Source: a virus
Reading direction: 5' to 3' (one strand)
Virus record (IMG/VR): IMGVR_UViG_3300034418_006582
Coordinates: 14,157-78,156 of that record
DNA: 64,000 nucleotides
The notes under the pieces are model-generated. The model was not told the DNA's origin and made no database searches. It saw only the letters and a program-made list of their open reading frames with translations. The position numbers and the translations under genes were made by a program. Position 1 is the stretch's first letter; each line of letters starts with the position of its first letter. This document shows, piece after piece, positions 39,911-60,458 of the stretch.

Positions 39911-40671
39911 AGTTTAATTTGGGGGGAAAAGAATATATAGAATTTAAAACAGATCTAAAAGGTCTAGACGAATTTGCACCTGTTAAACCATCTAAGTTTT
40001 TTTTACCACAGTGGTTTAAAGATATGGATGAATATATTACTCAAGACGCTGTACACGAAAAAGGTAAAAAATTTTACTTTGGTAGAAGTAAAGAAACTGC
40101 TATTAAAACTGCTGGTGGAACAGTGAAACGATGTCCAGCAATTGTAGATCTTCTTACCGAAGGGTTCATAATACCTATGTGGGCAGATTTTTTAGTTCAA
40201 AGAGATATGGAAACATTAGAATGGGACAACAAAGGTATGTTGCAATACGGAATTGAATTTCATGGGAAACAGCAAATAACAGGTTGGAAATTAAAAAAAA
40301 CTGATTTTCCTGAAGGAGTAAAGTTTATAAATCCGTGGAGAATTTACACACCTAAAGGTTATTCAGTAATGTTTATGCAACCAACTTATCAATTTGAAAA
40401 CAGATTTACTGTATTACCAGGTATTGTAGAAACAGATTCTTATCATCATATAAACTTTCCAACAATATGGCACACAACAAAAGATGCAGTAATAGATCGA
40501 GGAACACCTTTTATTCAAGTAATTCCATTTAAACGAGACGAATTTGATCTAGATGTAGGACAAATGACAGATAAACAAATACAAGATGATTTATTAGAAA
40601 AAAATGAATTAAATACAAAATTTAAAAATGCTTATAGGTCAATTACGCAAAGATTTAAAAATGAAAGGTAA
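39907..40671 (+). CDS. DUF6065-like protein (paralog 1)
   Basis: P.WFK, KRCP, NPW..TP.GYS, PGIVETD, GTPFIQVIPFKR. Confidence 0.65.
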   Translation: MKFNLGGKEYIEFKTDLKGLDEFAPVKPSKFFLPQWFKDMDEYITQDAVHEKGKKFYFGRSKETAIKTAGGTVKRCPAIVDLLTEGFIIPMWADFLVQRDMETLEWDNKGMLQYGIEFHGKQQITGWKLKKTDFPEGVKFINPWRIYTPKGYSVMFMQPTYQFENRFTVLPGIVETDSYHHINFPTIWHTTKDAVIDRGTPFIQVIPFKRDEFDLDVGQMTDKQIQDDLLEKNELNTKFKNAYRSITQRFKNER

Positions 40672-45300: not shown

Positions 45301-48300
45301 TACAAATATTAGCTTTAGCTCAGGAACAATAGCATTTGATAATTCAACTGATCTAGATATGGGTGGTAGAAAAGTCTTATTTGCTAACATCTATTCAGCA
45401 GAGGGTGATTTACCAAGTGCCTCAACTTATCATGGTATGTTTGCTCATGTTCATGGAACTGGTAGAGCTTACTACGCACATGCAGGAAATTGGGTTGAGT
45501 TAATTGGTGAAAATGAAATTGGATCTGGTTTAACATATTCATCTGGATCTTTAAGTGCAGACTTTACACCAACAAGCACAGATACTTTAACTAACAAAAC
45601 AATAAACTTCGAGGACAATACACCAATTATAGAATTTGCAGTTACAGTATCTAATGCAAGTGGATCAAATAAGTTTTATCTTGATGGTGAATTAGCAGCA
45701 AGTATTCAATTAATACCTGGTGTTACATATAGATTTGATTTGTCTGATGGTTCAACATCTGGACATCCTTTTGCATTATCAACAACTCAAGACGGAACAC
45801 ATAATTCAGGATCTTCTTACACAACAGGTGTTACAACCAATGGATCACAAGGATCTGTTGGTGCTTATTTACAAATCGTTGTTGACGCTGCCACAGCAGA
45901 TACTTTGTATTATTACTGTACAGCTCACTCTGGTATGGCTAATGATGCAGTAATATCTGTTCAAGGAACATCATTATCTGCTAGTGATACTGATGATTTA
46001 GCTGAAGGTAGTTCTAACCTTTATTACACAGATACAAGGGCTAGAAGTGCAATTTCAGTTACTGATGCTGGTGGAGATGGATCGCTAAGTTACGACAACA
46101 CGACAGGAGTGTTTACTTACACAGGTCCATCAGCATCCGAAGTTAGATCACATTTTTCTGCTGGTACAGGAGTTACTTTAAGTTCTGGTGAAATAAGTAT
46201 CGGTCAGGCAGTAGGTACAAGTTCTGATGTAACATTTAATGATGTCACTGTTTCAGGAGATCTTACAGTCTCAGGAACCACAACAACTGTAAATACTGAA
46301 ACAATAGAATTAGCAGACAACATAATTGTATTTAACTCTAACGCTACAGGTTCAGCAACAGAAAATGCAGGAATTGAAATTGAGCGTGGAGATGACGCTA
46401 ATAAAACTTTAATTTGGGACGAAACATCTGATAAATGGACTGTTGGATCCGAGACATTTGTAGCCTCTACCTTTGAAGGTAATTTAACAGGAACTGTTAG
46501 TGATATAAGTAATCATGATACTGACGACTTAACAGAGGGTTCTACTAATTTATACTATACAACAGCTAGAGCAAATACTGATTTTGATACTAAACTTGCA
46601 GCAGCAGATACAGATGATCTATCAGAGGGCGCTTCAAATCTTTACTACACAACAGCAAGATTTGATACAGCATTTAGTGGTAAAGGCGCTGCTGACTTAT
46701 CTTACGATAACTCTGATGCTGATACCTTAACTGCAACAAATGTTAAAGGTGCATTAGATGAATTAGACTTAGCTAAAGTTGATAAATCTACTTTAGCATC
46801 TACATTAACTTTTTTTCCTACTGATACAGCAGATGGAAGTATTAGTGGTTACTACAGAATGGTTACTTCTATATCTGATACTGATTATGATACAACTGCT
46901 GTAAATGTATCAACAGGTAATATCACTGCTAATGACCAAGAAGTAGGTGCAGTAATAGCAGATGCAGACTTATTTACTGGCAATCCAGGTTATATCAATG
47001 TTCATGTTGTAGGTAGTATAAGAAACACATCTGGTGGTAGTGCAGGATTTTACTTTAAAGTTTTCCATAGAGACTCTAGTGGTACTGAGACACTTATGGG
47101 TACTTCTAGTTCTACATCTAATGTTACAAACACTACATATCAAGAGTTCTATGCAGATGCTTTACTTAATAACCCACAAGAATTTACTTCTACAGATAGA
47201 GTTGTATTCAAATGGTTTGCAACCAACCTATCTGGTTCTGCAACTTATGATTTCCGATATGGTGGAACAGGTCCTGTAAGAGGTAACTTCCCAGTACAGA
47301 CTTCATTAATTATACACGACCAAGAAGCAGTAGATGTCCAAACCGATACATCAGCCTTTGCTGGAATATTAAGTACTTCTGAGACAACAGTTCAAGCAGC
47401 ACTTGATGTTATAGATGATATCGATACAGACAATGTACCAGAAGGTAGCACTAACCTTTATTACACAACAAGCAGATTTGATACAGCATTTACAGGGAAA
47501 TCAACTACAGATCTATCGGAAGGAACTAATCTTTATTACACACAAGCTAGATTTGATACTGCATTTGGTGGAAAAGATACAGATGATCTGTCTGAAGGTT
47601 CTACTAACTTATACTTCACTAATGCTAGAGCAGACGCAAGAATTACTGCTGCCAATGTAAATGACTTAAATGATATATTATTTGCTGATCCTACATCATC
47701 AGATGACGCAAAAGTCATTAGTTATAGTGATACATCAGGTGGTTTTGTATTGTCATCTCTTGCAGGATTGTCTGGATCTGGTGAAGTAAACACAGCTTCT
47801 AATTCAAATGTTGCAGGTATCGGTGTATTTAAACAAAAAACTGGTGAAGATCTTGAATTTAGAGGTATCAATGCTGGATCAACGAAAATTACAGTTACAA
47901 ATGATACTTCTAACGATGAAATAGATATAGATCTAGGTACTGTATCAATTGATCACTTATCAGATGTAGATACTACTACTTCTGCACCTACAAGTGGTCA
48001 AGCACTTAAATGGTCAGGATCACAATGGGAACCTGGTGACGCAAGTTCTCAAGTATCACAATTAACAGATGTAACATTAACTTCTTTAGCAACTGATGAT
48101 CTCCTTGTTTATAACGGAACTAACTGGGTTAACACAACACTTGATACTGATGATGTTGCTGAAGGATCGACAAACCTTTATTATACAGACGCAAGAGCGC
48201 AAGCCTCTATAACAGGTGGAACTGGAATATCTAATACTTCAGGAACAATAGCTATTGACTTTACTGAATTTGATACTGATAGTATTACAGAGGGATCAAC

Positions 48301-49588
48301 CAATCTTTTTTATACAAATGCAAGAGTTCAATCATACTTATCAGGTGGTACAGGTGTAACACTTAGTGGATCTGGTGAGTTCAGTATTGGACAGGCTGTT
48401 GGTACTACTGACAATGTAACTTTTAATGATATGACTGTAAGTGGAAACTTAACTGTTTCTGGTACTACAACTACTGTCAACACAGAAACAATTAACCTAG
48501 CAGATAATACAATAACTCTTAATTCCAATGCTACTGGTTCAGCCAGTGAAGATGGTGGTATTGAAATTGAGAGAGGTGACGATACTAATAAGACACTTAT
48601 TTGGAACGAAACTACTGATAAGTGGACAGTCGGATCTGAAACTTTCGTTGCAGGAACTTTTGAGGGTGAGGCAACAAATATACAAGCAACTGCAATTACA
48701 GATCTAACAGAGGATACTTCCCCTGCTGAAGGTGATTATTTAGTTACTTATGATGTAAGTGCTAGTTCTTTAAAGAAAGTTCAAAAATCAAACATTGCAG
48801 CAGCAGTCAGCTTTAGCGTAAATGATGAATTACCACTTACACTTGCTGACAGTACCTCGGATCCTATACAATTTACAAATGTTGGAACATCAGCTACTGA
48901 TCTTGATCTTGTTTTAGCAGACGGTACTTCTGATCCTATCCAGATTGTAGGGACTTCAAACTCTGCAACAGTATTCAGAGATGGCGATACAGATACTTAC
49001 ATTAAAGTAGAAGATACTACTGATGATGACACAATTAAGATGGCTACTGCTGGAACTGAAAGACTTATTATTGAAAGCACAGGTGAAGTCAAAGCAAATG
49101 GTAAAGACTTAGCTGGTTATTCAAATGGTGTAGAATTTAGCGTTCAACAATTTAGATTAACTGCAAATCAAACTACTACTGGTGCTGGTACAGACATAAC
49201 CTCAGGTTGGGAAGTTCCAGATAGCACATTACAAGCAAACTTTGGTAATAATGTATCAGAATCTTCTGGTATATTTACATTTAGTAAAACAGGTTTTTAT
49301 AAAGTAGAAGCAGTAGTTAAAGGTCAAAATGGTACTGCTGGATCTGCACATCATATATTATACATTATAACTTCAGATGATAATTTCAGCACTCAAGCAC
49401 CTGTAGCAAGAGCTATAACTCAAGAAGGTGGTAATGGAGACACTGCATATACAGCAGCAGTACTAGATATAACAGATTTAACAAATCATAAGGTCAAATT
49501 TCAATATTTCAATAACAGTGGCGAAATAGAAGGAGACACCAACCAAAATAGAACTTTTGTAACATTTACAAGACTAGGAGATACATAA
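42353..49588 (+). CDS. Giant repetitive fibre protein (2411 aa)
   Basis: About 20 DTDDLxEGSTNLYYT repeats, 3 near-identical GIEIERGDD blocks, LYYYCTAHSGM domain. Confidence 0.85.
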   Translation: MAQKYPIRLNYDAENNPEGFAEFQSADYIGLSDGGTGGSYSSLADLRTGLGLEIGSDIQAYDADLSAIAALTHIDGGFIVSNGTTWVVESGSTARDSLSLGTGDDVTFATLTTTGSVTIQGNLDVQGEFLNTTAEIVVVDDAFVKLNNGNGEVDSGIIVETSDTDDARLFYDVSNNRWVLGENGSYDEILTQDSTDTLTNKSIDGSTNTLTNIPNSAFSNSSITVTDGTNSTDIALGGTITFSDGTGITVSESSGTITASVDFTEFDTDNVTEGSTNLYYTDARVSTYLTGGTGITESSGTISIDFTEFDTDNVVEGSSNLYYTNARADARIGLASIGDLADVTLTSTATGDILRYNGSAFINEPLNLGTDTEGDYVASLVAGTGITLTNNSGETSTPTVSVDMTAFDTDDLTEGSTNLYYTDTRVGSYLTTNSYATESYVDSAVATENEISEMNDVTLTSLASGEFLQYNGTAWVNVVPDTDDITEGTNLFYTNARVDTEIDSYVTGGTGVTVSSGQISIGQAVETTSNVQFADTQIDGDLTTGGQVVHGTNTISINQDADGTDNTLNVEIEFLRGNLQHKHFFWDETNDRFSINSDDLAVGTVIGNLTGNVTGDLTGDVTGTVSDISNHDTDDLSEGLTNLYYTDARARSSISYTDAGGDGSLSYDSSTGTITYTGPSATEVRAHFSAGTGVSISSGEISIGQSVGTSDDVTFNDLILSGNLTVSGTTTTINTETLTLADNVIILNSNATGSASENAGIEVERGDDTNKTLIWNEGTDKWSVGSETFVAGTFEGALTGNVTGTVSDISNHDTDDLTEGSTNLYYTDTRVGTYLTTNSYATQTYVDNAVASENELSEMNDVTLTSSTTGDFLQYNGSAWVNIAPDTDDIAEGTNLYYTTARFDTAFSGKTTDNLTEGSTNLYYTDERAQDALGTALTMGTQTLITVTYQDSTNDFDFVVDNDLANYDNTTSAFTTLADFSGGTNISFSSGTIAFDNSTDLDMGGRKVLFANIYSAEGDLPSASTYHGMFAHVHGTGRAYYAHAGNWVELIGENEIGSGLTYSSGSLSADFTPTSTDTLTNKTINFEDNTPIIEFAVTVSNASGSNKFYLDGELAASIQLIPGVTYRFDLSDGSTSGHPFALSTTQDGTHNSGSSYTTGVTTNGSQGSVGAYLQIVVDAATADTLYYYCTAHSGMANDAVISVQGTSLSASDTDDLAEGSSNLYYTDTRARSAISVTDAGGDGSLSYDNTTGVFTYTGPSASEVRSHFSAGTGVTLSSGEISIGQAVGTSSDVTFNDVTVSGDLTVSGTTTTVNTETIELADNIIVFNSNATGSATENAGIEIERGDDANKTLIWDETSDKWTVGSETFVASTFEGNLTGTVSDISNHDTDDLTEGSTNLYYTTARANTDFDTKLAAADTDDLSEGASNLYYTTARFDTAFSGKGAADLSYDNSDADTLTATNVKGALDELDLAKVDKSTLASTLTFFPTDTADGSISGYYRMVTSISDTDYDTTAVNVSTGNITANDQEVGAVIADADLFTGNPGYINVHVVGSIRNTSGGSAGFYFKVFHRDSSGTETLMGTSSSTSNVTNTTYQEFYADALLNNPQEFTSTDRVVFKWFATNLSGSATYDFRYGGTGPVRGNFPVQTSLIIHDQEAVDVQTDTSAFAGILSTSETTVQAALDVIDDIDTDNVPEGSTNLYYTTSRFDTAFTGKSTTDLSEGTNLYYTQARFDTAFGGKDTDDLSEGSTNLYFTNARADARITAANVNDLNDILFADPTSSDDAKVISYSDTSGGFVLSSLAGLSGSGEVNTASNSNVAGIGVFKQKTGEDLEFRGINAGSTKITVTNDTSNDEIDIDLGTVSIDHLSDVDTTTSAPTSGQALKWSGSQWEPGDASSQVSQLTDVTLTSLATDDLLVYNGTNWVNTTLDTDDVAEGSTNLYYTDARAQASITGGTGISNTSGTIAIDFTEFDTDSITEGSTNLFYTNARVQSYLSGGTGVTLSGSGEFSIGQAVGTTDNVTFNDMTVSGNLTVSGTTTTVNTETINLADNTITLNSNATGSASEDGGIEIERGDDTNKTLIWNETTDKWTVGSETFVAGTFEGEATNIQATAITDLTEDTSPAEGDYLVTYDVSASSLKKVQKSNIAAAVSFSVNDELPLTLADSTSDPIQFTNVGTSATDLDLVLADGTSDPIQIVGTSNSATVFRDGDTDTYIKVEDTTDDDTIKMATAGTERLIIESTGEVKANGKDLAGYSNGVEFSVQQFRLTANQTTTGAGTDITSGWEVPDSTLQANFGNNVSESSGIFTFSKTGFYKVEAVVKGQNGTAGSAHHILYIITSDDNFSTQAPVARAITQEGGNGDTAYTAAVLDITDLTNHKVKFQYFNNSGEIEGDTNQNRTFVTFTRLGDT

Positions 49589-49781: not shown

Positions 49782-50237
49782 ATGGCTGATAGACAACAAC
49801 TTTTAAGAGTAAAAATGACAGGATCTGACTCTACAGGTCTAGCAGAATTTCAAGACGGACATGTAGATGGTGGTCCATTAATACCTGCTTATACAGAGGC
49901 AGAAAGAGATCTTATTACATCAGCAACTGAAGGTATGCTTATATACAATACTGATGATGATCGTTTAGAGCTAAGAACTTCAAGCTCATGGATACAATTA
50001 GATATTGGTGATGTTACAGGTGTTACCACAAGCACTACATCTGGTATTTCAGGTGGTGCAACTTCAGGTGCTGTAGACATTTCAATTGACGCAACAAGAC
50101 TTACTGATGGTACAAGCATTGATATAGATGAAGATAACGATTTAGTTATGATCTATGACAATTCAGCTAGTGCAATGGTAAAAGTTAATCCAGTACAACT
50201 CTTCACTAATGAGGCGTTGGTATGGATGGGATTATAG
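49782..50237 (+). CDS. Virion structural protein
   Basis: T.AERD....GMLIYNTD fibre-base motif; N-terminus resembles the 42353 protein. Confidence 0.7.
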   Translation: MADRQQLLRVKMTGSDSTGLAEFQDGHVDGGPLIPAYTEAERDLITSATEGMLIYNTDDDRLELRTSSSWIQLDIGDVTGVTTSTTSGISGGATSGAVDISIDATRLTDGTSIDIDEDNDLVMIYDNSASAMVKVNPVQLFTNEALVWMGL

Positions 50238-50245
50238 GAGAATAA

Positions 50246-50575
50246 ATGGCTATATATAACGCAGCAGAACTTGCAGAGGTAACTGCATTAGGAACATCTG
50301 AAACAGAAGTTTTCAGCAATTCTAATAAGTGCATTATCAAGCAAATTATGTTGGCTAACTATACAGCAACTGACAGAACAGTGGAGATCAAAGTTATTCC
50401 ATCAGGAGATACTACTGGTGATCAACATATCATTTTTGGTGATGTTACTGTTCAAGCAAATACAACTACAGTTATTGACTTAGCTATGGTTATACCTGCT
50501 AGTGCTTCAGTAGCTGCATTATGTTCAGCAGCAAGCTCTGTGAATATACATGTATCTGGTGTAGAGGTTAGCTAA
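50246..50575 (+). CDS. Small beta-rich virion protein
   Basis: IIKQI.LAN...SGVE. Confidence 0.65.
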   Translation: MAIYNAAELAEVTALGTSETEVFSNSNKCIIKQIMLANYTATDRTVEIKVIPSGDTTGDQHIIFGDVTVQANTTTVIDLAMVIPASASVAALCSAASSVNIHVSGVEVS

Positions 50576-51918
50576 TGCCTTACATAGAAATACCTGAACC
50601 AGTCTTTCTGGACAGGTTAGGTGGCGATGAAGTTTACGGTTACGGCCAAGACGGAGATGTAACTATAACAGCCGACACCACACTGTCTAGAGATATGTAT
50701 TACAACGATCTTACAATTAATTCATCTTGTACATTAGATACAAATGGTTATCGTGTATTTGTTCGTGGTACTTTAACTTTTACAGACTCAACTTCAAGAA
50801 TTGGTAGATTTACAAACAAAACAAATACAGGAACTCTTAAAGGTGGTTTTGCTAAAGGTACAGCAGCAACAGATACTTTAGGTGGTGCCTCAGGTGAACA
50901 ATCAGGATCTCACCCCTCAGGTAATGAGTTTTTTGCTGGTGAAAATGAAATGTTCAACTTATCAGTAGCTATACAAGGTAGAAAATTTGATGTAGATAGT
51001 GGTGGGTATAAATTTATTAGTGGTGGATCTGGCGCAGGCGATGGATCTATTACAGCAAACGCACAATCAGGTGCTGATGGTGGCGACTCTAACTGGGGTG
51101 ATTACCAAACAGTTGGTGCAGCAGGTGGTAAAGGTGGTTCAGGAAATGCTGCCTCAGCAGGCACAGGCGCAGTAGGTGGTGGAGTTGTAGTAGTGTGTGC
51201 AAAAACTATTTCAGGAGATGGAACAGTAAGAGCTGACGGCGATGACTCTACATCAGCTACACAAGGAACTGATGGATCTCCAGCACCAGACGCAAGTACA
51301 CCAGGTAATAATTATTCATATCCTGGTAATAACTACTCTTATTCAGGAAACAATTATTCTTATGGATATAGCTACGGATATAGCTATCCTGGTAGCAACT
51401 ACTCTTACTCAGGAAATAATTATTCTTATACAAGCAACTACTCTTATTCAGGATCTAATCCTCATACACATTATCACTGGCATCCAGTTGTTGTAAATAA
51501 CTACTCAACAGGTACTTATCACTATCATTACAATCACTGGCATCCATATACTAACTATGGTTCAAATACAAACTATGGTTCTAACCCAACTAACTACGGA
51601 TCTAATCCAACAAACTACGGTGCTAACTATGGTTCTAACTATGGTTCTAATCCAACTAACTACGGAACAAATCCAACTAACAATGACACAAATCCAACTG
51701 TCTACCATCCAGGTGGTGCAGGTGGATCTGGTGGGACAGCTACAGATGGCTACAATGCTGGAGGTGGAACTGTTATACTTGTTTCAGGAACTAAGCCATT
51801 ACCATCAGGTTTGACTTTAGCAGCAGCAGCAGGAACAGGTGGAACAGGTACAGCAAGTGCAGGAACAGTGGTAACAGTTTATAACATAGGTGCAGATAAT
51901 ACAGATCCAGGGGCTTAA
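50575..51918 (+). CDS. Gly-rich virion protein with symmetric Asn/Tyr repeat insert and His-rich centre
   Basis: GNNYSY repeats, HTHYHWH...HYHYNHWH, NYGSNPT repeats. Confidence 0.8.
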   Translation: MPYIEIPEPVFLDRLGGDEVYGYGQDGDVTITADTTLSRDMYYNDLTINSSCTLDTNGYRVFVRGTLTFTDSTSRIGRFTNKTNTGTLKGGFAKGTAATDTLGGASGEQSGSHPSGNEFFAGENEMFNLSVAIQGRKFDVDSGGYKFISGGSGAGDGSITANAQSGADGGDSNWGDYQTVGAAGGKGGSGNAASAGTGAVGGGVVVVCAKTISGDGTVRADGDDSTSATQGTDGSPAPDASTPGNNYSYPGNNYSYSGNNYSYGYSYGYSYPGSNYSYSGNNYSYTSNYSYSGSNPHTHYHWHPVVVNNYSTGTYHYHYNHWHPYTNYGSNTNYGSNPTNYGSNPTNYGANYGSNYGSNPTNYGTNPTNNDTNPTVYHPGGAGGSGGTATDGYNAGGGTVILVSGTKPLPSGLTLAAAAGTGGTGTASAGTVVTVYNIGADNTDPGA

Positions 51919-51919
51919 T

Positions 51920-52579
51920 ATGAGTGAACAATTTATAGGTAAAATACCGACAGACTACGAATCATTTGATGTTATACCAGACAGCATATATGGATCTGGT
52001 ATGGACGGAAATATTACCATATCATCAAATACATCTTTAACAAGAGATATGTACTACAACAATTTAACAATAGATCCTGGTATTACTTTAGATACAGCAG
52101 GTTATAGAGTTTTTGTAAGAAATGTATTAGCTATGGCTACTACATCAGCAAATCAAGCAGATACTATTATCGGTCGTATTGGTGGCGTATCTACATCAGG
52201 AACATTAAGAGGTGGCGCTATTGAAAGCGTTACAGATTCTCTTGGTGGTAATGGTAATGGTTACACAGCTACTGTACCAACAGAGGGTGCTGAATACTTT
52301 AATCATCCTGACATTGCTATATCAGGTGTCATTGTTCATGCAGGATCAACTACCCCTTCAGCTTTACAAGGTGGCGCAGGTGACAGCGTTAATCATGGTG
52401 GTGGTGTGGTAGTAGTTTGTGCTAGAAGGTTACAAGGATATGGAACTATAGAGGCTAGTGGTGAATCTACTACAGGTGGTGGAGTTATTTTTATTGTTTC
52501 TCAAGACTTACCACTAACAGGTATAGCTACAGATGTAACAGGATACGCAGACGGTACTGTAAAGACATTTAAGGTTTAA
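51920..52579 (+). CDS. Gly-rich paralog of 50575 lacking the insert
   Basis: Shares YG.G.DG..TI....L.RDMYYN.LTI...LDT.GYRVFVR and GGGVVVVCA. Confidence 0.8.
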   Translation: MSEQFIGKIPTDYESFDVIPDSIYGSGMDGNITISSNTSLTRDMYYNNLTIDPGITLDTAGYRVFVRNVLAMATTSANQADTIIGRIGGVSTSGTLRGGAIESVTDSLGGNGNGYTATVPTEGAEYFNHPDIAISGVIVHAGSTTPSALQGGAGDSVNHGGGVVVVCARRLQGYGTIEASGESTTGGGVIFIVSQDLPLTGIATDVTGYADGTVKTFKV

Positions 52580-52580
52580 C

Positions 52581-53504
52581 ATGGCTACTGTAAGAATCTA
52601 CTACAGTAGAGAAGATCAAGATTACGATAACTGGAACTTATTTTATTTTCCTGGTACTTTCAAAGATGACACACACGAGAACTTGTTACCTGATGACACT
52701 ATAGATTTTATATTTCCTTATGGACCAAGAAAAAAACTAGATTTTACCTCTGAAGGTAACTTTGGCTATGTTGATGTAGAACTAAACACAGCTAAACAAT
52801 TCTCTTTTTATATAAGACGAAAAGACTTTATATTTGATTACAACGATGAGTATTGTGAACCTCTTAAAATGGAAAACAGCCCATTATGTGAATACTGTTA
52901 TGAAGTTGGTTATGTGTGGGACATAAATACAAATGTTGCACCATATACAGAGTTTTATGTAAAAAATGATAGTCCTTATGTATTTACTGATAGTAATTGG
53001 AATATGTTGTGTCCTATGGATATAACTATGACAGGTGCAACAGTATTTGATAAAGACGAGGATCCATTAGCAGTTGATGACGGTGATGACGGAACTGATC
53101 AAGGATCATTTGAAAAATTTAAAATATTTTATAGTAAAGGCGAAGCATTGCTATTGGATATTCCAGCAGAGGCTGAATTTCCTATGGCAGGTGAGTTCGC
53201 TGAAAGAGATATTCGAGAGTATCTCGTGCTATACTTACTAGGTAAATCTTACACTATAGGAGAAGATATGGATATAAACATAAGTGCTGAGGCATTAGCT
53301 TCTGAAAAGGCTGACGCTTTACAAATGTGCGAAAAGGCAATTGCAAACTGTCTTTTTAAATTAGGTGAAGATATCGATGCTTTTGATGAAGTTGCATTTT
53401 TAGCTGATGTAGATGGTTACAAAGAGGGATTTTCTCTTTCTTTTGGACCAACAATCGACTATCTAGAAGAACAGCTCAATATTCAAGCAACACTCACAGC
53501 TTAA
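52581..53504 (+). CDS. Acidic hypothetical protein
   Basis: ORF in operon. Confidence 0.75.
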   Translation: MATVRIYYSREDQDYDNWNLFYFPGTFKDDTHENLLPDDTIDFIFPYGPRKKLDFTSEGNFGYVDVELNTAKQFSFYIRRKDFIFDYNDEYCEPLKMENSPLCEYCYEVGYVWDINTNVAPYTEFYVKNDSPYVFTDSNWNMLCPMDITMTGATVFDKDEDPLAVDDGDDGTDQGSFEKFKIFYSKGEALLLDIPAEAEFPMAGEFAERDIREYLVLYLLGKSYTIGEDMDINISAEALASEKADALQMCEKAIANCLFKLGEDIDAFDEVAFLADVDGYKEGFSLSFGPTIDYLEEQLNIQATLTA

Positions 53505-53523
53505 TAATATTAAGGGAGGTGCA

Positions 53524-53991
53524 GTGAGATATATATTCTACATACCTAAAGGTGAATCTGTTTCAGATTACAAAGATCAATGGGAACATAAAACCAATGA
53601 GGTTCATTGTGGTATGTCTAAAAGTTTAGAAGGATTAGTTACAGATCCTGATAAAGCACAATTTGTAGAAATACCTGAATATCAATTTGCAAGAGTTCAA
53701 AAAAATGTAGCTAGTAAAGATTACATTTCATACAATTATGTAGATGACTTCGTTGATCAAAATGATCTTCCACAATACATTATGGAAGTTTGGAAAAAGA
53801 ACTTAGATAATCCTAGTGATCCTGAAATAAAAATAGATCAACACTTTATGCAATATGAAAAAATATACCGTTGGTTTTACACAGATCACATCAAGCTAAA
53901 TGCAGGTTGGTATAATTTAGTTTTTAAAAAAGATGACGAGGAAGTAGAAGTTAAAGAAATTACGGCTTATGACGCTTATGAAGAAGAGTAA
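53524..53991 (+). CDS. Hypothetical protein
   Basis: GGAGG RBS, GTG start. Confidence 0.75.
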   Translation: MRYIFYIPKGESVSDYKDQWEHKTNEVHCGMSKSLEGLVTDPDKAQFVEIPEYQFARVQKNVASKDYISYNYVDDFVDQNDLPQYIMEVWKKNLDNPSDPEIKIDQHFMQYEKIYRWFYTDHIKLNAGWYNLVFKKDDEEVEVKEITAYDAYEEE

Positions 53992-54694
53992 TCTTTGGAT
54001 AGATGGCAATCCTAAAGAAGTTGTTAAAGGTGTTTATGCTTGGGAAAATTGTTTAACAGTTCCTGAGGGTATTATCGAATCAATGAATCAAGATGTAGAT
54101 AATTGGTCTAAAGCTGTTACTACTGATGATGTAAAGAAAAATGATAGCAAGAAAACTGTTTACAATGATAATGGACCTATACGATTTAATCCTGAATTAG
54201 AATTTACAAAACCTGAACATTATACATTTTTAAGGCAAGTACAAACTAATGCTTTAAATAAAATATCTCAGTATTTTGAATTATTTCCAGATCTAGAACG
54301 AGAAGTCAATTGGATGGAAAATTGGCAATACATTACATATAGACCACCAAAACACATGACATTTCATAGTGATAATCACTCAGTAAGAAATCCTAAAAAT
54401 AATAAGTTTTATATGGCACCTTATTTAAGAAGATGTACTGTACTTACATACCTTAATGATGATTTTGATGGTGGTGCTTTAGTATTTAAGTATTTTCCTG
54501 AAGCAATGCCATATAAACCACCAGCAGGATCAGTTGTTATAATGCCAAGTAATTATATGTATTCACATGCAACTACACCATTATTAAATGGTAGAAAGGC
54601 AGCATTTTTAGTTCCCTGTAGCAGTAATTATGATATGGATAGTTATAATAGTGGTATGCCATTGGCAGAAGTAAAAGCAAGGGAGTTAAGATGA
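53969..54694 (+). CDS. Fe(II)/2OG oxygenase (prolyl-4-hydroxylase-like)
   Basis: HSD, YLNDDFDGG, distal H, GRK. Confidence 0.88.
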   Translation: MTLMKKSNLWIDGNPKEVVKGVYAWENCLTVPEGIIESMNQDVDNWSKAVTTDDVKKNDSKKTVYNDNGPIRFNPELEFTKPEHYTFLRQVQTNALNKISQYFELFPDLEREVNWMENWQYITYRPPKHMTFHSDNHSVRNPKNNKFYMAPYLRRCTVLTYLNDDFDGGALVFKYFPEAMPYKPPAGSVVIMPSNYMYSHATTPLLNGRKAAFLVPCSSNYDMDSYNSGMPLAEVKARELR

Positions 54695-55368
54695 AAAGAG
54701 TTATGGGTTGCGTAGAAATATATGAGGACGCAATTACAGAAGATCAAGCCAAGCAAATAATTGCAGTTACTGAGGAAATAGATAAAGATACTGATATTGA
54801 AATAGGATATGAAGATGCCTCAGTAGGTAAAGGTCACAAAGGTGGCGATATTAGATCAAATAAATTATTTAACATTTCTCAATTAGCTTTTACTCCACAA
54901 GAAACAAGACTTTATCGTGAAGCTGTAAAATCTGGTAAGGATCAATACTTTTCCGACATCAGAAACATTAACGATCTAATTCATGGTATTTTAATGAAGT
55001 ATGTTAATGAATATACAGAAAAGTACGAATTTCCTATTCAACATGATGAGGGATATACCTTATTAAGATATCAAGGTGGGCAAGAGTATAAGCCACATAG
55101 TGATTATGCACCACATATACCTCGCTATTTATCAGCTTTAATTTTATTAAACCCAAGTGAATACGAAGGTGGTGGAACATACTTCGTACATTTTGACGAA
55201 AATGTGAAACCAGAAAAACCTGCTCTAGTATTATTTCCTAGCAATTACGCATACACTCACAGAGCTATGCCTGTTGTGAATGGTACAAAGTATGCAATCG
55301 TAACATGGCTAGGTCATAGACTTGATCTTGATGGTATGCCTCATAACTACAGACCAGAGGGTGTCTAA
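54691..55368 (+). CDS. Fe(II)/2OG oxygenase (prolyl-4-hydroxylase-like)
   Basis: PHSD, YEGG, FPSNY..HRAMPV..GTKYAIVTW. Confidence 0.9.
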   Translation: MKRVMGCVEIYEDAITEDQAKQIIAVTEEIDKDTDIEIGYEDASVGKGHKGGDIRSNKLFNISQLAFTPQETRLYREAVKSGKDQYFSDIRNINDLIHGILMKYVNEYTEKYEFPIQHDEGYTLLRYQGGQEYKPHSDYAPHIPRYLSALILLNPSEYEGGGTYFVHFDENVKPEKPALVLFPSNYAYTHRAMPVVNGTKYAIVTWLGHRLDLDGMPHNYRPEGV

Positions 55369-55925
55369 TGGACGCAGTTGTTATACCAGATTTATTTAAA
55401 GGTAATCAATTAGAGGAAATGAGATATTGGTTAGATAGTGAAACGCCTTATAACAACGATGACACATGGTTTAAGAAAAATACAGGACACATGGTCAAAA
55501 TGTGTCCAGAGTTAAATACACTACACACTTATACAATAGACAAAGCAAGAGAAGTGTTTGATGTTCATGACTTGCTACCTACATTTGCGACACTTAACTG
55601 GTATGAGTTTGATCAACAACATCCTGTTCATAAAGACACTGATCCAGTTGAATACACTATTATGTACAATTATTTTTCTGAGAATACTTGGAAAATAGAT
55701 ATTGGTGGACATATTATTGAATTAGGAAACGAAGAATCAGTAGCATATCACGGATCTAAACAAAATCATAGTAGATTAAATAACCCAGGTGGTATAACTC
55801 TTGCACTATACTTGAACTATGCAACCCCTAGTAGTTACCATTTTATATTAGGTGAATACAGTACAGGTAATGCACAATTTCCATCAGGTAGGCATTTTAG
55901 TGAAATTGAGAAAGATTGGTTATGA
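55368..55925 (+). CDS. Fe(II)/2OG oxygenase-like protein
   Basis: HKD...Y.G....HSR. Confidence 0.7.
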   Translation: MDAVVIPDLFKGNQLEEMRYWLDSETPYNNDDTWFKKNTGHMVKMCPELNTLHTYTIDKAREVFDVHDLLPTFATLNWYEFDQQHPVHKDTDPVEYTIMYNYFSENTWKIDIGGHIIELGNEESVAYHGSKQNHSRLNNPGGITLALYLNYATPSSYHFILGEYSTGNAQFPSGRHFSEIEKDWL

Positions 55926-56632
55926 ACAAGACATTACTAAACAACACAACAGTTGATATAGATGAAAATGATAAATCTGAATATAAATTATTAAATGAAA
56001 CTAGCACATTGGCACCAAGTTTAGAATTTTGGCTAGATCAAAACTTTGGCAGCATTAACAAAGCTCTCATAGTAGGTGCAGGTGTTGGTGTGGCCAGTAA
56101 AATACTAGAAGATGCAGATGTTGATCTAACAAATATAGAACCACAAAGTGATCGTTTTGCTAAATTAGAAACTAATTGTCCTAACTCTACAAATATTAAT
56201 AAAGCATGCGATAGCACATCTGGATCTGGAACTATGTACTATTTTGATGATAACAAATCAGGTGCAAAGTTAGATCTGTTATTTGGTGATAACAGTGAGG
56301 CAGTAGATGTAATAACTGTAGATAGTTTGTCTTTGACTGATCTTGATCTTATTGTCATAGATGTCAATGGTAAAGAAATGGATGTTCTAAGTGGCTGTAC
56401 AGATACTTTAACTAATAATCCTGACTGTAAAGTTATTATGTATTGGAATAATGATCTAAAAGCAAGTCCAAATACTGATTTTACTGCATTAAGAAATTGG
56501 GGTTTTACATCAATAAATATTATTCACTGGAATAGTTCTGATAATACTATTACATTGAAGTCACAATTTACAGGAGATAATCCTGAAGATGGTTTAAAAG
56601 TAGTTCAACAAGCACATTTATTATTGGAGTAA
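55922..56632 (+). CDS. FkbM-like SAM methyltransferase
   Basis: VGAGVG, IEP, IDVNGKEMDVL.G. Confidence 0.75.
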   Translation: MNKTLLNNTTVDIDENDKSEYKLLNETSTLAPSLEFWLDQNFGSINKALIVGAGVGVASKILEDADVDLTNIEPQSDRFAKLETNCPNSTNINKACDSTSGSGTMYYFDDNKSGAKLDLLFGDNSEAVDVITVDSLSLTDLDLIVIDVNGKEMDVLSGCTDTLTNNPDCKVIMYWNNDLKASPNTDFTALRNWGFTSINIIHWNSSDNTITLKSQFTGDNPEDGLKVVQQAHLLLE

Positions 56633-56633
56633 T

Positions 56634-57449
56634 ATGGCAAAACGATGGTGGGAAACAAAAAAATATTCAAGATTTCTAGAGGAAAAAGAACACAAAGTTG
56701 GTGATGATAAGATTTTATTTCTTACAGCAGATCCTGAATATGTAGATCTCGCACCACCTAAACCTGCAACTGAATTTATGCCAGCTTGGTATAAGCATTT
56801 GCAAAGAGAGTGGACAGAGATGAGGGCTGATGATGAAAGTTGGAATAGTGTACCATACAAAGATAACTCACTAAAAAAATGTCCAACGGTTAAAGATATT
56901 ATGTTTAGTGGCTACATTATACCTTTGTGGTTAGATCTAAAGATAAGTCACTCAAAAGATACAGGGTTTAATTGGTATAACAAACACGCATATAACGATA
57001 CGGTAACATATCATAATCCTGCTTCAATAGGAAATATGCCTATACCACCTGAAAGTTATCACACAGCTTTAAAATTTAGTAATCCGTGGGATATTATTAC
57101 ACCACCAGGTTGGTCAGTGTTGATTATGTCACCGTGGTATCACAGACATTGGGAAATAGAAATAATGCCTAGTATTGTCGAAACAGACTCATATCATCAA
57201 ATGAACATACCTTTTTTATATCATGGCACAGGAGAAAGAACTTTTAGACAAGGCATGCCTTTAATTCAGGTTATCCCCTATCGTAGAGATGGTTGGGATC
57301 TTGAAGTTGGTGTGACAAGAGAAATGGATGAGCTTGATAAAAAGTATTATGCAAAGAGTAGATCAGCAGAGAGAACAAGACAAAATGGTTTTTATCGTTG
57401 GCTTACCCAACAGAATAAGAAAAGATGGAAGGATCAAGGAATATTATGA
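56634..57449 (+). CDS. DUF6065-like protein (paralog 2)
   Basis: P.WYK, KKCP, NPW..TPPGWS, PSIVETD, GMPLIQVIP. Confidence 0.65.
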   Translation: MAKRWWETKKYSRFLEEKEHKVGDDKILFLTADPEYVDLAPPKPATEFMPAWYKHLQREWTEMRADDESWNSVPYKDNSLKKCPTVKDIMFSGYIIPLWLDLKISHSKDTGFNWYNKHAYNDTVTYHNPASIGNMPIPPESYHTALKFSNPWDIITPPGWSVLIMSPWYHRHWEIEIMPSIVETDSYHQMNIPFLYHGTGERTFRQGMPLIQVIPYRRDGWDLEVGVTREMDELDKKYYAKSRSAERTRQNGFYRWLTQQNKKRWKDQGIL

Positions 57450-58282
57450 AATGTCCAGTACCAAAGAATTTTAGATTAACTGATATATGGTCGCAACCTA
57501 TGAAAGATAATCTAAGAAATGCGCCAAGAGTTGCCTATACAATTCCTACTCGTAATTTAGCTTGGGGACAATTGGAAAACAATGAAAGTAGTTCGTTGCC
57601 ACCTATTAATTATGAATTACCTAAAAAGTTTGTAAAAGCACCTAATGGTTGTGTATCTACACAGTTTATGCGTAGTAGATTATATGAAGTAAATTTTCCA
57701 TATAGCTATGTAAAGGTTAAATTACAAAAAAATAAATTTGCTGATGAAGTTGATCGCTTTGGTGGTTACAATGTGTCAGCTAATTACTATGGCAATGTTA
57801 AACATCATGGTCCTTTTACAGAATTAATTATGGAAGAAAAAGAGGGTTGGGCTAGACCTGGTATTCCTACAATGCAAATTTCTATGCCTGTTATGTTATT
57901 TACTGATGATCCTGATGTTTGGATGGATGTATTACCCTCTGATCGTAATGTTGGTAAAAACTTACCAATTACAACAATACCTGGTTTTATGCCAATACAC
58001 GCATGGTCTCGTGGTTTATCATGGGCATTTGAGTGGGTTGATTTAGAACAAGAGGAATTACTATTAAATCACGATACAGTAATGTTTAATCTTTTATTTT
58101 CTAAACCAGTCAAGTTAGAGTATGTGCCGTGGAACGAAACTTTTAGTAAGCAATGGAACTTAATTAGTCAATCATCTGTAAATAGACGAAACACTAATGA
58201 ATTGTATACAGAGGCTTTAGCTAGACGACCAAAGAAACTAATGCCTAGAAAACAGAGAATATGGAAAGACAAGAGAAAGTAA
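57446..58282 (+). CDS. Divergent DUF6065-like protein
   Basis: GC, IPG....W.R..WAFEW pattern; weak similarity. Confidence 0.45.
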   Translation: MKCPVPKNFRLTDIWSQPMKDNLRNAPRVAYTIPTRNLAWGQLENNESSSLPPINYELPKKFVKAPNGCVSTQFMRSRLYEVNFPYSYVKVKLQKNKFADEVDRFGGYNVSANYYGNVKHHGPFTELIMEEKEGWARPGIPTMQISMPVMLFTDDPDVWMDVLPSDRNVGKNLPITTIPGFMPIHAWSRGLSWAFEWVDLEQEELLLNHDTVMFNLLFSKPVKLEYVPWNETFSKQWNLISQSSVNRRNTNELYTEALARRPKKLMPRKQRIWKDKRK

Positions 58283-58770
58283 TAGAAAATATATTTGAAG
58301 ATCAAGTATTTGATCGTATTGTAAATATATGTAAAAGAAGTTATAAAAGATTTCCCTATTCTGAAGATTTTGGTAGATACTTTGTAAATAATCACGAATG
58401 GAAAGCAATAGAGCCTTTTTATGCCAGATCCGTGGAATTAGCGAGGAATATATTTGAATCAGATACTTTGCTGCCTAGCTATGCCTTATTTGCACATTAT
58501 GAGGGCGAGAAAGCAAGTTTAGAAAAGCATATAGATAATAATGCTTGTACATACACTTTAGATATTTGTCTATATCAAGAAACAGCGTGGGATTTATTTA
58601 TAGAGGGCAGAGCTTACACATTACAACCTAATCAAGCTCTTGCATTTTATGGTGAGGAACAAGAACATTGGCGTGAAGATTTCCCAGATCCTGAAAATAA
58701 CAAAGTAGGTATGTTGTTTCTTCACTATGTTGAACCAGATCATTGGTTTTATAAGGATAAAAATGTTTAA
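58261..58770 (+). CDS. Fe(II)/2OG oxygenase-like protein
   Basis: L.KHID..AC...YG....HWR...FLHY. Confidence 0.75.
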   Translation: MERQEKVIENIFEDQVFDRIVNICKRSYKRFPYSEDFGRYFVNNHEWKAIEPFYARSVELARNIFESDTLLPSYALFAHYEGEKASLEKHIDNNACTYTLDICLYQETAWDLFIEGRAYTLQPNQALAFYGEEQEHWREDFPDPENNKVGMLFLHYVEPDHWFYKDKNV

Positions 58771-59503
58771 GAAAAAAGAAAATAATATAACTTTTGCAAC
58801 TATGGTTCCGTCCTTATTGGAGGTAGCACCACCTGTTCCAGCAGGTCAAATGATCCCTGAGTGGTTTAAAAAGTTACCACTTGATCTACCTCGTATGAAC
58901 GATAAGCCATTTCCTAAGTTAGGACCAATACTTAAAGATCTAAACTCGCATACTGTTAAGAAATGTCCTGCTGTTGTAGATTATTTTACTGAGGGATACA
59001 TTATTCCTTTATGGACAGATATATTAGTTCAAAGACATGGTGATCAATTTCACTTTGAAACTAACCATCCTGATGATACTTTTGCAACTGTTATAGAGTT
59101 TCATAACAATGAACAACTTAGTACATATCCTTTTGAAAGAAATGATTTTAGAAATGCTGTTAAGTTTACAAGTCCTTGGTTCTTTTGGACACCACCAGGT
59201 TGGTCAACATTGTTCTTGCAACCACAAATGCACCCTAATAGAGATTTTACTTTGATACCTGGTATTGTTGAGACAGATTCATTTCATCAAGTAAACTTTC
59301 CTAGCATTTGGCATAGTGAGGGTGATAGGTTGTTAAAAAGAGGTAGTCCATTTTTACATGTCATACCATTTAAAAGAGAGAAAACAAATATGGTTGCTAA
59401 AGAGTTTGATGATTTTGAAAATGACGCAATGCGTGATGAAAGTTTTAAACTTCGATCAAAGATGACAGGTGGCTACAGAGAAATTACTAGAAGGTACAAA
59501 TGA
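58763..59503 (+). CDS. DUF6065-like protein (paralog 3)
   Basis: PEWFK, KKCP, SPW..TPPGWS, PGIVETD. Confidence 0.65.
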   Translation: MFKKKENNITFATMVPSLLEVAPPVPAGQMIPEWFKKLPLDLPRMNDKPFPKLGPILKDLNSHTVKKCPAVVDYFTEGYIIPLWTDILVQRHGDQFHFETNHPDDTFATVIEFHNNEQLSTYPFERNDFRNAVKFTSPWFFWTPPGWSTLFLQPQMHPNRDFTLIPGIVETDSFHQVNFPSIWHSEGDRLLKRGSPFLHVIPFKREKTNMVAKEFDDFENDAMRDESFKLRSKMTGGYREITRRYK

Positions 59504-60198
59504 AGATCCAATTTGCACCACGCAGAGAGGACTATGTACCTATAGGTAAAACATTACCTCAACCTGCAAAGAATTTTATACCTGATTGGTTTAAAGATAT
59601 GCCAGTTCATAAAGCAATAGATGATCCTAAAACAGCTTTATTACATCAATTAGATATGTCAACAATAAAGAAGTGTCCTAGTTTCAGAGATATATGGAAA
59701 TATGGAATTGTTATTCCTGCACCATGCGATATATATATAAATGCAACACACGATGAATGGATGTGGCGAACACCTACAAATATAATAGAACTTGAATATC
59801 ATGCAGATTATCAATTTAAAGATCATTATCCTAACAAAAATATAAAAGGTGTTTTTAAAATTAAGCACCCATTAGCTGTAATTACACCAAAAGGTTATAG
59901 CGTAATGCAAATACCACTTTTATATCACAATAATCCTGACTGGTACTTTCCGTGGGGATTATTAGATAGTGATGAATACCATGATTTGAATCCACAATTA
60001 ATTGTTACATCTAAAGATAGAGAAATACTGATTAAGCAAGGCGAACCATTGTTCTACTTGTACCCATTTAAAAGAGAAAACTGGCAAATTGAAATGCTAG
60101 AATACAAAGATATTCAACAAAAATTAAAGGAAACTCGTTGGAAGTTAGGAACTATGTTTCAAGGCAGATATATTAAAAATATAAGGAAGAATATATGA
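59500..60198 (+). CDS. DUF6065-like protein (paralog 4)
   Basis: PDWFK, KKCP, TPKGYS, IKQGEP...PFKR. Confidence 0.65.
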   Translation: MKIQFAPRREDYVPIGKTLPQPAKNFIPDWFKDMPVHKAIDDPKTALLHQLDMSTIKKCPSFRDIWKYGIVIPAPCDIYINATHDEWMWRTPTNIIELEYHADYQFKDHYPNKNIKGVFKIKHPLAVITPKGYSVMQIPLLYHNNPDWYFPWGLLDSDEYHDLNPQLIVTSKDREILIKQGEPLFYLYPFKRENWQIEMLEYKDIQQKLKETRWKLGTMFQGRYIKNIRKNI

Positions 60199-60458
60199 AA
60201 GTTTATATAGATCAAGATCTTTGTACAGGTGACGGACTTTGTGCTGAAATAGCACCTGATGTTTTTATTATGCAAAATGATGGTTTAGCTTATGTACAAG
60301 AAACAGTAGGTAATTTTGGCGAATTAAAGATATTTAGTGCAATACATAATAATTCACAGGGTGCTGAAGGTTTAGCAAGAATACCTACAGGTCAAGAAGA
60401 TATAGTGCGTGAGGCAGCTGAAGAATGCCCAGGTGAGTGTATTTATATAGTAGAATAG
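60195..60458 (+). CDS. fdx: Single-cluster ferredoxin (actinobacterial type)
   Basis: IDQDLCTGDGLC...APDVF...EECPGECI. Confidence 0.9.
   Translation: MKVYIDQDLCTGDGLCAEIAPDVFIMQNDGLAYVQETVGNFGELKIFSAIHNNSQGAEGLARIPTGQEDIVREAAEECPGECIYIVE

Follow-up and report, generated by a model that had tools for sequence, protein, structure and literature searches.

We analysed a 64,000-nucleotide stretch of DNA (the window) from IMG/VR virus record IMGVR_UViG_3300034418_006582, comprising bases 14157–78156 of a single 78,156-bp virus contig without a terminal repeat, and in it a block of genes at 50575–60458 that encodes Fe(II)/2-oxoglutarate (2OG) oxygenases, an FkbM-family methyltransferase, a ferredoxin and several proteins resembling the Pfam family DUF6065 (hereafter D65 proteins). 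In our favoured reading, which is tentative and to which we give a little less than an even chance, the block is a late-expressed cassette on the tail-fibre operon that would hydroxylate virion proteins of the fibre region and then O-methylate them, with the ferredoxin in support and the D65 proteins as partners. This reading draws on the gene content, folds, catalytic triads, synteny and cross-lineage recurrence reported below. The enzymes appear to serve the fibre genes, not general metabolism, because in over 40 related contigs the fibre operon invariably runs on into the block. A protein target is supported because homologous arrays adjoin fibre or Gly-rich genes in three cyanomyovirus genera, because the nearest solved relatives of the oxygenase OXY_b are peptidyl prolyl and lysyl hydroxylases, and because relatives add a protein-type N-acetylglucosamine (GlcNAc) transferase or, at one locus, combine a hydroxylase with a sulfotransferase and an adenosine 5'-phosphosulfate (APS) kinase.

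The enzyme block continues the tail-fibre operon

The window phage is uncultured, marine, 78 kb in size and not T4-like. Its genome (GC ~34%) encodes a large terminase, a portal, a prohead protease and an HK97-type major capsid protein. Behind these genes come those for a minor-tail/tape-measure-like protein and for three fibres of very large size; all late genes lie on the + strand. An initial annotation made from the sequence had described a co-oriented, tightly coupled run of genes at 50575–60458, which was borne out: the genes are all present on the + strand, with stops and starts that overlap or abut. The coupling begins upstream of the block, as the operon of the giant fibre gene fib2411 runs on into the cluster, and from the start of fib2411 (42353) to the end of the ferredoxin gene (60458) all neighbours overlap or lie ≤19 nt apart. 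The gene order is g63, g151, g109, REP447, g229, PUD307, g155, OXY_a, OXY_b, oxy_c, FkbM, D65_1, g285, oxy_d, D65_2, D65_3 and the Fer4_15 ferredoxin, with the following features (aa, amino acids).

42353..49588, + strand: fib2411, giant fibre of 2411 aa with repeated TEGSTNLYYT; open reading frame conserved in relatives
49782..50575, + strand: g151 and g109, small conserved fibre-associated proteins (g151 = phrog_1325)
50575..51918, + strand: REP447, Gly-rich fibre-like protein of 447 aa, candidate substrate; homologues in all cluster-bearing relatives
51280..51726, + strand: REP447 insert, 149 aa (aa 236–384), distinguished by composition, motif counts and tandem DNA repeats
51920..52579, + strand: g229, Gly-rich, insert-less paralog of REP447; likely start ATG 51920; weak match to phrog_13336
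52581..53504, + strand: PUD307, with an N-terminal pullulanase-associated (carbohydrate-binding-type) domain, PF03714, 33.4 bits
53524..53991, + strand: g155, variable protein, 33–70% identity in relatives; no family matched
53969..54694, + strand: OXY_a, P4H/PKHD-type oxygenase (P4H, prolyl 4-hydroxylase), PF13640, 35.1 bits
54691..55368, + strand: OXY_b, P4H-type oxygenase, PF13640, 54.1 bits
55368..55925, + strand: oxy_c, small divergent 2OG-oxygenase-like protein of Syn9 gp54 type, phrog_2954, E 5e-6
55916..56632, + strand: FkbM-family methyltransferase, PF05050, 27.9 bits (cut-off 22.7)
56634..57449, + strand: D65_1, phrog_7084, E 6e-52; PF19541, 21.2 bits, under cut-off
57425..58282, + strand: g285, very divergent D65 paralog with a KCP motif; likely start 57446 (MKCP)
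58261..58770, + strand: oxy_d, small divergent 2OG-oxygenase-like protein of Syn9 gp54 type, phrog_2954, E 5.5e-15
58727..59503, + strand: D65_2, likely start 58763; phrog_7084, E 7e-57; PF19541, 26.0–26.8 bits
59500..60198, + strand: D65_3, phrog_7084, E 9e-47
60195..60458, + strand: single-cluster 4Fe-4S/3Fe-4S-type ferredoxin, last gene of the block, Fer4_15 (PF13459), E 6.5e-18

Promoter and terminator scans inside the block returned nothing exceeding shuffled expectation and no convincing internal element. The top promoter-like site of the region (TCGAAA-17-TATAAT, 60606–60634) lies in the 210-bp gap directly 3' of the ferredoxin gene, consistent with the block ending after that gene.

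The block has no close match at the DNA level among 50,697 phage records (megablast, zero matches). Related metagenomic contigs number in the hundreds, and more than 40 IMG/VR contigs keep the order g151-g109-REP447-g229-PUD-g155-OXYa-OXYb-(oxy_c)-FkbM-D65-g285-oxy_d-D65-(D65)-Fdx at 33–94% protein identity. Within this order oxy_c is missing from some relatives, oxy_d is likewise variably present, and D65_3 occurs only in some (L017-L019, L021, L036 and L119; L numbers are our handles for the loci compared), while the position of the ferredoxin is conserved. The conserved order shows selection on the block, yet it amounts to one lineage.

The block holds two firm and two probable oxygenases

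The initial count of four Fe(II)/2OG oxygenases was accepted, with two members firm and two probable. OXY_a and OXY_b both exceed the 27-bit cut-off of PF13640 (2OG-FeII_Oxy_3), and residues H136, D138, H190 and K200 are invariant in their family (17 sequences). The nearest solved relatives of OXY_b are the Bacillus anthracis P4H (3itq/5iax, E 1e-6) and the lysyl hydroxylase LH3 (3e-4). PF13640 was the sole family reported for the oxygenases at E ≤ 0.1, and none matched the TET/JBP or AlkB families.

The assignment of oxy_c and oxy_d as probable oxygenases is based on an HxD...H triad (H90, D92 and H136, invariant in 15 homologues), on the phrog_2954 matches and on the ESM Atlas model of oxy_d, which superposes with a viral cluster annotated 100% PF13640 at a template modeling (TM) score of 0.85. 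An Arg that follows the triad is conserved in oxy_d and variable in oxy_c. Neither protein has a Pfam match at E ≤ 0.1, and comparisons of the oxy_c/d profile with OXY_a/b (hhalign) and with PDB sequences (hmmsearch) were both negative. The label carried by phrog_2954 is 'ferrochelatase', and the cyanophage homologues of oxy_d are labelled either that or '2OG-Fe(II) oxygenase'. By profile, the 'ferrochelatase' genes Syn9 gp54 and S-RIM44 157 are 2OG-oxygenase-like (E 4e-10 and 5e-14); more generally, array members of the cyanophages Syn9, S-RIM44 and P-TIM40 (L088, L091 and L092) are often annotated as 'ferrochelatase', 'DNA endonuclease V' or 'minor coat protein' in GenBank and RefSeq. The other two proteins named initially, FkbM (over the PF05050 cut-off) and the ferredoxin (Fer4_15), were both found in the block.

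A Gly-rich protein with a Tyr/Asn/His-rich insert is the candidate substrate

REP447, encoded at the head of the block, is the best candidate substrate on the basis of its position. The protein matches no Pfam or PHROG family; its N- and C-terminal Gly-rich parts are paralogous to g229, and the insert lies between them. The start of g229 is likely at ATG 51920 because its homologues are 219 aa long. The composition of the insert is Y 20%, N 19%, S 14%, G 13%, P 9% and H 6%, and its Y+N+H content of 46% is the maximum of the genome (mean 11.7%, standard deviation 4.8, 170-aa windows). Tandem DNA repeats with periods of 21 and 12 bp underlie it. Its conserved core, SNPHTHYHWHP..INN..YHYHY(N/A)HxHP, which holds 5 overlapping HxH motifs, has PGNNYSY, GYSY and TNYGSNP arrays on either side. 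Among relatives the core is near-fixed (SNPHTHYHWH..INN..(F/Y)YHYHYAHxHP), while the flanking arrays grow, shrink and even switch sides. Prolines of the insert stand mostly in S-N-P-T, (Y/T)-P-G and H-P contexts, and Y-P-G, T-P-G and H-P-G are all present. At one locus (L041:2255-3676) an in-frame stop within the repeat divides the REP447 homologue into parts of 369 aa and 104 aa; either the repeat was misassembled or the protein is naturally truncated.

We examined the gene-neighbourhood co-occurrence that the initial annotation had put forward as a check. A Y/N/H-rich protein was found in 14/14 cluster-bearing loci tested and in 0/20 cluster-less relatives, in which the maximum Y+N+H upstream of the downstream anchor gene MPE412 was 0.14–0.30 with ≤2 HxH motifs. 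Because the cluster-bearing contigs form one clade, the co-occurrence counts as approximately one event and is weak evidence. The idea that loss of oxy_c or oxy_d tracks a change in repeat types was not borne out, as the differences merely follow clades.

In the mechanism we propose, the four oxygenases would act on side chains of the Gly-rich, fibre-like products of the genes immediately upstream, adding hydroxyls most likely to Pro and perhaps to Asn, Lys or His as well. The lead candidate substrate would be the Tyr/Asn/Ser/Gly/Pro/His insert of REP447, with g229, PUD307 and the large fibres as alternatives. FkbM would then O-methylate the new hydroxyls, or those of Tyr, Ser or Thr, a role that a GlcNAc-transferase or a sulfotransferase might take over in relatives. 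The ferredoxin may keep the enzyme iron reduced or feed another redox step. The D65 proteins may be non-nucleotidase partners, acting as thiol-dependent enzymes or as trimeric recognition or assembly factors for the fibre proteins.

Fibre genes, D65, hydroxylases and presumed capping enzymes recur together in other lineages

Independent cases outside the window lineage come from Syn9, S-RIM44 and P-TIM40, which represent three cyanomyovirus genera and in which genes follow one another in the order tail fibre, Gly-rich 'tail fiber assembly' proteins, two Trp halogenases, D65 homologue and oxygenase array. Their Gly-rich proteins all score over the cut-off of PF21722 (Gly_rich_2), and their D65 homologues were detected at E 1e-29 to 1e-32. 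The downstream flank consists of neck, head-closure and terminase genes in S-RIM44 and of a helicase and a DNA methyltransferase in Syn9 and P-TIM40; because these flanks differ among the three genera, the fibre side is the constant neighbour.

Closer relatives vary the presumed capping step. Two loci (L033:10735-11679 and L044:8876-9841) carry an extra GlcNAc-transferase gene of the Skp1-hydroxyproline type (PF11397; E 9e-19 and 3e-22) between D65_2 and the ferredoxin; L033 also lacks oxy_c and oxy_d. More distant phages were found by a scan anchored on MPE412. One of them, L146:1122-6383 (IMGVR_UViG_3300044613_001842), encodes in a co-oriented set an Fn3+Gly_rich_2 protein, two tandem D65 proteins, a sulfotransferase, a PF05118 Asp/Asn beta-hydroxylase and an APS kinase, and another (L115) encodes a Gly_rich_2 protein, a D65 protein and a sulfotransferase. 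The recurring pattern is therefore one of a fibre or Gly-rich protein, D65, a hydroxylase and a hydroxyl-decorating enzyme, the last being of methyl type in the window, GlcNAc type in L033/L044 and sulfate type, together with a donor-synthesis gene, in L146.

The D65 paralogs have a predicted dUTPase fold and are not canonical dUTPases

A further D65 gene lies upstream of the block, behind another fibre gene.

35859..39698, + strand: fib1279, tail fibre of 1279 aa with fn3 (PF00041), tail-tip (PF09327) and Peptidase_S74 intramolecular chaperone (PF13884) domains
39907..40671, + strand: D65_0, directly after the HxH fibre fib1279; PF19541, 26.6–26.9 bits

Of the four DUF6065-like proteins initially counted in the block, three (D65_1, D65_2 and D65_3) are clear members that match phrog_7084 at E 1e-47 to 1e-57; the fourth, g285, is a weak member recognized by its KCP motif and a low-confidence fold. 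The fifth such gene, reported at 39907, is indeed a paralog (PF19541, 26.6 bits) that follows a fibre with five HxH motifs. D65_0, D65_1, D65_2 and D65_3 are mutually 26–38% identical. The PF19541 (DUF6065) cut-off is 26.6 bits; D65_3 and g285 gave no match to this family, and g285 matched neither PF19541 nor phrog_7084. All that g285 has in common with the D65 proteins is the K-C-P motif and a weak, motif-III-like D-x5-N-x-P stretch, which hhalign places on the D65 motif (E 0.07).

The initial annotation had noted a dUTPase-like C-terminus in these proteins, which was confirmed at the level of fold. An AlphaFold (AF2) model of D65_2, built from an alignment of 42 diverse homologues (mean predicted local distance difference test, pLDDT, 86), was searched against 48,161 representative PDB chains (structural search VIA). 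The top 22 matches were all dUTPases, dCTP deaminases or their viral derivatives (Z 9.0–4.8; next match 2.9), the best being the African swine fever virus (ASFV) dUTPase (Z 9.0, root-mean-square deviation 3.4 Å, 127 residues). The top Foldseek matches of the model were likewise all dUTPase/dCTP deaminase, and in the ESM Atlas D65_2 matched solely DUF6065 or unnamed viral clusters. Even the low-confidence model of g285 (pLDDT 54) gave only members of the dUTPase superfamily as its top 20 VIA matches (Z 5.6–3.0). These models thus give the D65 paralogs the fold of dUTPases and dCTP deaminases, with weaker evidence for g285. D65 proteins differ from canonical dUTPases in that no PF00692 (dUTPase) match was found in the window genome or the cluster proteins, the D65 C-terminus is helical and without a motif-V arm, and an invariant Pro of D65 stands opposite the motif-IV Arg in an hhalign alignment with the dCTP deaminase of HF1. 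Consistently, a D65 profile searched against PDB sequences found dUTPase at E 1.6 only. Across the 42 D65 sequences C80, D98, H126, K146, D184, H187 and N190 are invariant or near-invariant, C80 directly precedes helix 81–88, and a motif-III-like G-(I/L)-(V/L)-(E/D)-(T/S)-D-x-(Y/F)-H is conserved.

A profile search of 1.84 billion proteins placed the D65 family at 4,450 clusters at 50% identity (E ≤ 0.001), nearly all of them stand-alone proteins of 230–280 aa; no informative fused or longer form was found, which is weak evidence. Describing the KxCP-bearing proteins as an uncharacterised class is fair, and our literature search on DUF6065 found no paper; the proteins themselves are not new, having been noted in 2010 (Iyer, Abhiman, de Souza, Aravind, 2010, Nucleic Acids Res, PMC2938197). 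The contexts in which single D65 genes occur are diverse. In halovirus HF1, D65 lies between ribonucleotide reductase and tail genes, and a separate dCTP-deaminase-type gene is present. In a second phage group a single D65 gene follows terminase, portal, protease, capsid and a 229-aa gene. The only two bacterial homologues found by a scan of genome contigs, both in metagenome-assembled genomes, have uninformative neighbours and lie among housekeeping genes (hisS/relA; SmpB/cNMP-binding, that is, cyclic nucleotide monophosphate-binding). The homologue in S-CREM1 carries the annotation 'triphosphate nucleotidohydrolase'. Some D65 proteins at least may act on nucleotides. Two general roles found no support: that D65 is a stand-in for a missing dUTPase, as HF1 has both a Dcd-type gene and D65, and that it is a general chaperone of HxH tips, as halovirus tail proteins beside D65 lack HxH and the second phage group has no HxH-rich protein within 10 kb. 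The link between His-rich tips and DUF6065 drawn in the initial annotation accordingly stands within the window phage family and not in other lineages.

Within that family the fib1279 end upstream of D65_0 is hypervariable and of metal-binding type. The protein contains SDERLKENI and has five C-terminal HxH motifs (positions 1052–1118) before its Peptidase_S74 domain; its homologues (including L050, L063 and L070) have 1–11 HxH motifs, and some tips carry (GN)n runs. The synteny fibre-D65_0-g394-fib2411 is kept in L049-L074.

Alternative readings of the block

Several observations weigh against fibre modification. Sites behind fibre genes often take accessory-gene insertions, and loops rich in Tyr, Asn, Ser and Gly, like HxH motifs, are ordinary in receptor-binding fibre tips and need no modification. 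We know of no homologue with known chemistry. The co-occurrence of repeat and enzymes is limited to one clade and roughly one evolutionary event, and no relationship of REP447 or g229 to the Gly_rich_2 proteins found in other lineages could be detected: neither matched PF21722 at E ≤ 5, and membership was rejected when the g229 family, aligned with seven PF21722 proteins (hhalign), reached only E 0.17 over 10 columns; the likeness is one of composition only. D65 also occurs apart from the hydroxylases, with no PF13640 oxygenase in a 91%-complete phage of the second group or in HF1, and near nucleotide metabolism, co-oriented and after thymidylate synthase and DNA polymerase in halovirus HSTV-2 and after nrdA and nrdB in cyanophage S-RIM4.

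The last two contexts bear on a rival that we consider quite unlikely, in which the D65 proteins bind pyrimidine (deoxy)nucleotides, and the oxygenases, the methyltransferase and the relatives' glycosyltransferase build a hypermodified base. Besides these neighbours, it can call on the dUTPase/dCTP deaminase fold with its conserved motif-III-like sequence, on the S-CREM1 annotation, and on DNA methyltransferases, which lie downstream of the Syn9 and P-TIM40 arrays and of which the window phage also encodes a large one. However, none of the cluster proteins has a PF00692, Tet_JBP or AlkB-type match at E ≤ 0.1, D65 has an invariant Pro for the motif-IV Arg and a helical C-terminus in place of the motif-V arm, and HF1 already carries its own dCTP deaminase family gene. 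The oxygenases are of P4H/PKHD type and the relatives' glycosyltransferase belongs to the protein-modifying PF11397 family; moreover, the block sits in the late fibre operon, distant from replication genes, and that of S-RIM44 between fibre and neck genes. The DNA or nucleotide alternative named in the initial annotation is thus weakened and keeps a small probability through HSTV-2 and S-RIM4. Gene position also speaks against tailoring of a secondary metabolite or free peptide, in which the enzymes would decorate a host- or phage-derived compound, either a small molecule or a short peptide, that is unrelated to the virion: a fibre or Gly-rich structural gene is the constant neighbour in every lineage examined, and the block lacks a scaffold-forming enzyme (nonribosomal peptide synthetase, polyketide synthase, ATP-grasp or cyclase), a short leader-bearing precursor and an exporter. 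A stack of non-orthologous oxygenases accompanied by an O-methyltransferase of FkbM type and a small ferredoxin is what one typically sees in natural-product clusters, Trp halogenases are found in the cyanophage versions, and this is the published interpretation of the cyanophage arrays (Iyer et al., 2010); we nevertheless hold it to be distinctly improbable for the window.

Somewhat less improbable, and still unlikely, is that the block is accessory cargo without a common target, unrelated genes having gathered at a permissive site behind the fibres to act on host proteins (for example translation factors) or in unrelated roles; the D65 proteins may then be non-catalytic structural or assembly proteins. 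That D65 genes turn up singly near head, tail and nucleotide genes, and even among bacterial housekeeping genes, fits such a history, as do the variable presence of oxy_c, oxy_d and D65_3 and the reuse of the dUTPase fold in the non-enzymatic viral proteins pp71, ORF10 and Tlp20. It accounts poorly for translational coupling and strict order kept over 33–94% protein divergence, for enzymes that are conserved equally to or beyond the flanking variable PUD307 and g155, for the same family combination beside fibre genes in unrelated backbones, and for the Cys, His and Asp that are invariant across 42 diverse D65 sequences. We therefore favour modification of fibre-region proteins. The initial proposal that the block modifies fibres, rather than being a set of metabolic auxiliary genes, holds in so far as gene context ties the enzymes to the fibre genes; its choice of the repeat as substrate was not upheld to the same degree, the co-occurrence being that of one clade.

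A wider view, which we find rather doubtful, would be of a modular 'hydroxylate, then cap' chemistry that phages of aquatic habitats apply to their own receptor-binding fibres. In it, interchangeable hydroxylases (P4H-type and Asp/Asn-type, with halogenases in cyanophages) would pair with interchangeable O-methyl, GlcNAc or sulfate capping enzymes, D65 would be a novel kind of enzyme acting on proteins or of factor presenting substrates, and the target in the window phage would be an HxH core that binds metal between flanking Tyr/Asn/Pro repeats. On this view adhesive or host-range properties would hinge on modifications made after translation, and the many 2OG oxygenases of marine phages would gain a role.

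Neighbouring genes

No Pfam family was found for fib2411. The small protein g109 (within 50246–50575), with zero family matches, is the most conserved of the region, at 70–94% identity where fibres and enzymes are at 33–80%. PUD307 is highly variable (37–65% identity among relatives). Downstream of the block, the 412-aa protein MPE412 (61116–62354) weakly matches calcineurin-like phosphoesterases, contains an invariant GNHGENR...HGHQFR and adjoins lysis genes; it is conserved in >585 viral contigs and served as the anchor for finding cluster-less relatives.

Significance

Few accessory genes of marine phages are as common as those for Fe(II)/2OG oxygenases, and what they do has been a question since the first cyanophage genomes. 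The locus and its relatives narrow the substrate question to a few candidate proteins encoded beside the enzymes, and as all parts are small and co-expressible in E. coli, the question is addressable by mass spectrometry without phage culture. Should fibre modification prove real, recognition of hosts by abundant ocean phages would rest on chemistry invisible to sequence-based host-range prediction, and a large dUTPase-fold family would gain a function.

Comparison with known systems

The tip of the phage T4 long tail fibre, gp37, is an HxH metal-binding needle. The window proteins resemble it in having H-x-H runs near the distal end, five in fib1279 and five overlapping ones in the REP447 core; in contrast to gp37, the HxH of REP447 alternate with aromatics (HTHYHWH, YHYHYNHWH) inside a low-complexity Tyr/Asn insert, and metal binding is putative. 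With the trimeric dUTPase/dCTP deaminase superfamily the D65 proteins share the predicted fold and the motif-III-like hairpin sequence, whereas an N-terminal extension of ~75 residues, the K-x-C-P motif and invariant His residues are additions of D65. The initial suggestion of a pathway like those for ribosomally synthesized and post-translationally modified peptides (RiPPs) was not supported: Pfam and PHROG searches found no protease, leader peptide or RiPP recognition element family in the block. There is accordingly no leader/core precursor and no releasing protease, and the candidate is a 447-aa fibre-like protein with its insert between conserved structural segments.

In the Skp1 pathway of Dictyostelium and Toxoplasma, the prolyl 4-hydroxylase PhyA and the transferase Gnt1 (PF11397) produce hydroxyproline-GlcNAc. 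L033 and L044 similarly couple a PF13640-type hydroxylase with a PF11397 GlcNAc-transferase, by which a residue would be hydroxylated and then decorated; the window differs in having FkbM and no glycosyltransferase, and the proposed target is a viral fibre protein, not Skp1. For bacteria, hydroxylation followed by sulfation of tail-collar/Gly-rich proteins has been predicted (Iyer et al., 2010, PMC2938197). These operons of dioxygenase, sulfotransferase and 3'-phosphoadenosine 5'-phosphosulfate (PAPS) genes are alike in that a fibre-like or Gly-rich protein would be hydroxylated and the hydroxyl capped, and L146, which has exactly that set, is a phage version of them. The window differs from them in having a methyltransferase for the sulfotransferase and P4H-type enzymes for one of Asp/Asn beta-hydroxylase type, and the bacterial systems are likewise predicted only. 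Our literature search found no paper on phage fibre hydroxylation; a 2OG oxygenase has been detected in the purified virion proteome of cyanophage S-SCSM2R, whose authors consider it non-structural.

The closest counterpart in a sequenced phage that we compared is the array of Syn9 (gp41–gp54), a tandem array of ten dioxygenases with two tryptophan halogenases, for which, as for other cyanophage arrays, secondary metabolism was proposed (Iyer et al., 2010, PMC2938197). It too lies behind tail-fibre and Gly-rich 'fibre assembly' genes and sets several non-orthologous Fe(II)/2OG oxygenases in tandem; its conserved-Cys dUTPase-fold protein gp43 matches the D65 profile (E 3.5e-29), gp54 the oxy_c/d profile (E 4e-10) and gp50 the OXY_a/b profile (E 6e-6). 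In contrast to Syn9, the window block has neither Trp halogenases nor a JmjC/MINA-type member (no such family in 50575–60458 at E ≤ 0.1), the window phage has five dUTPase-fold proteins where Syn9 has one, and FkbM and the ferredoxin are added. As in Syn9-type arrays, tandem unrelated dioxygenases and a Cys-bearing dUTPase-fold protein stand behind fibre genes, and we conclude that the locus is a variant of the gene arrangement first noted in 2010.

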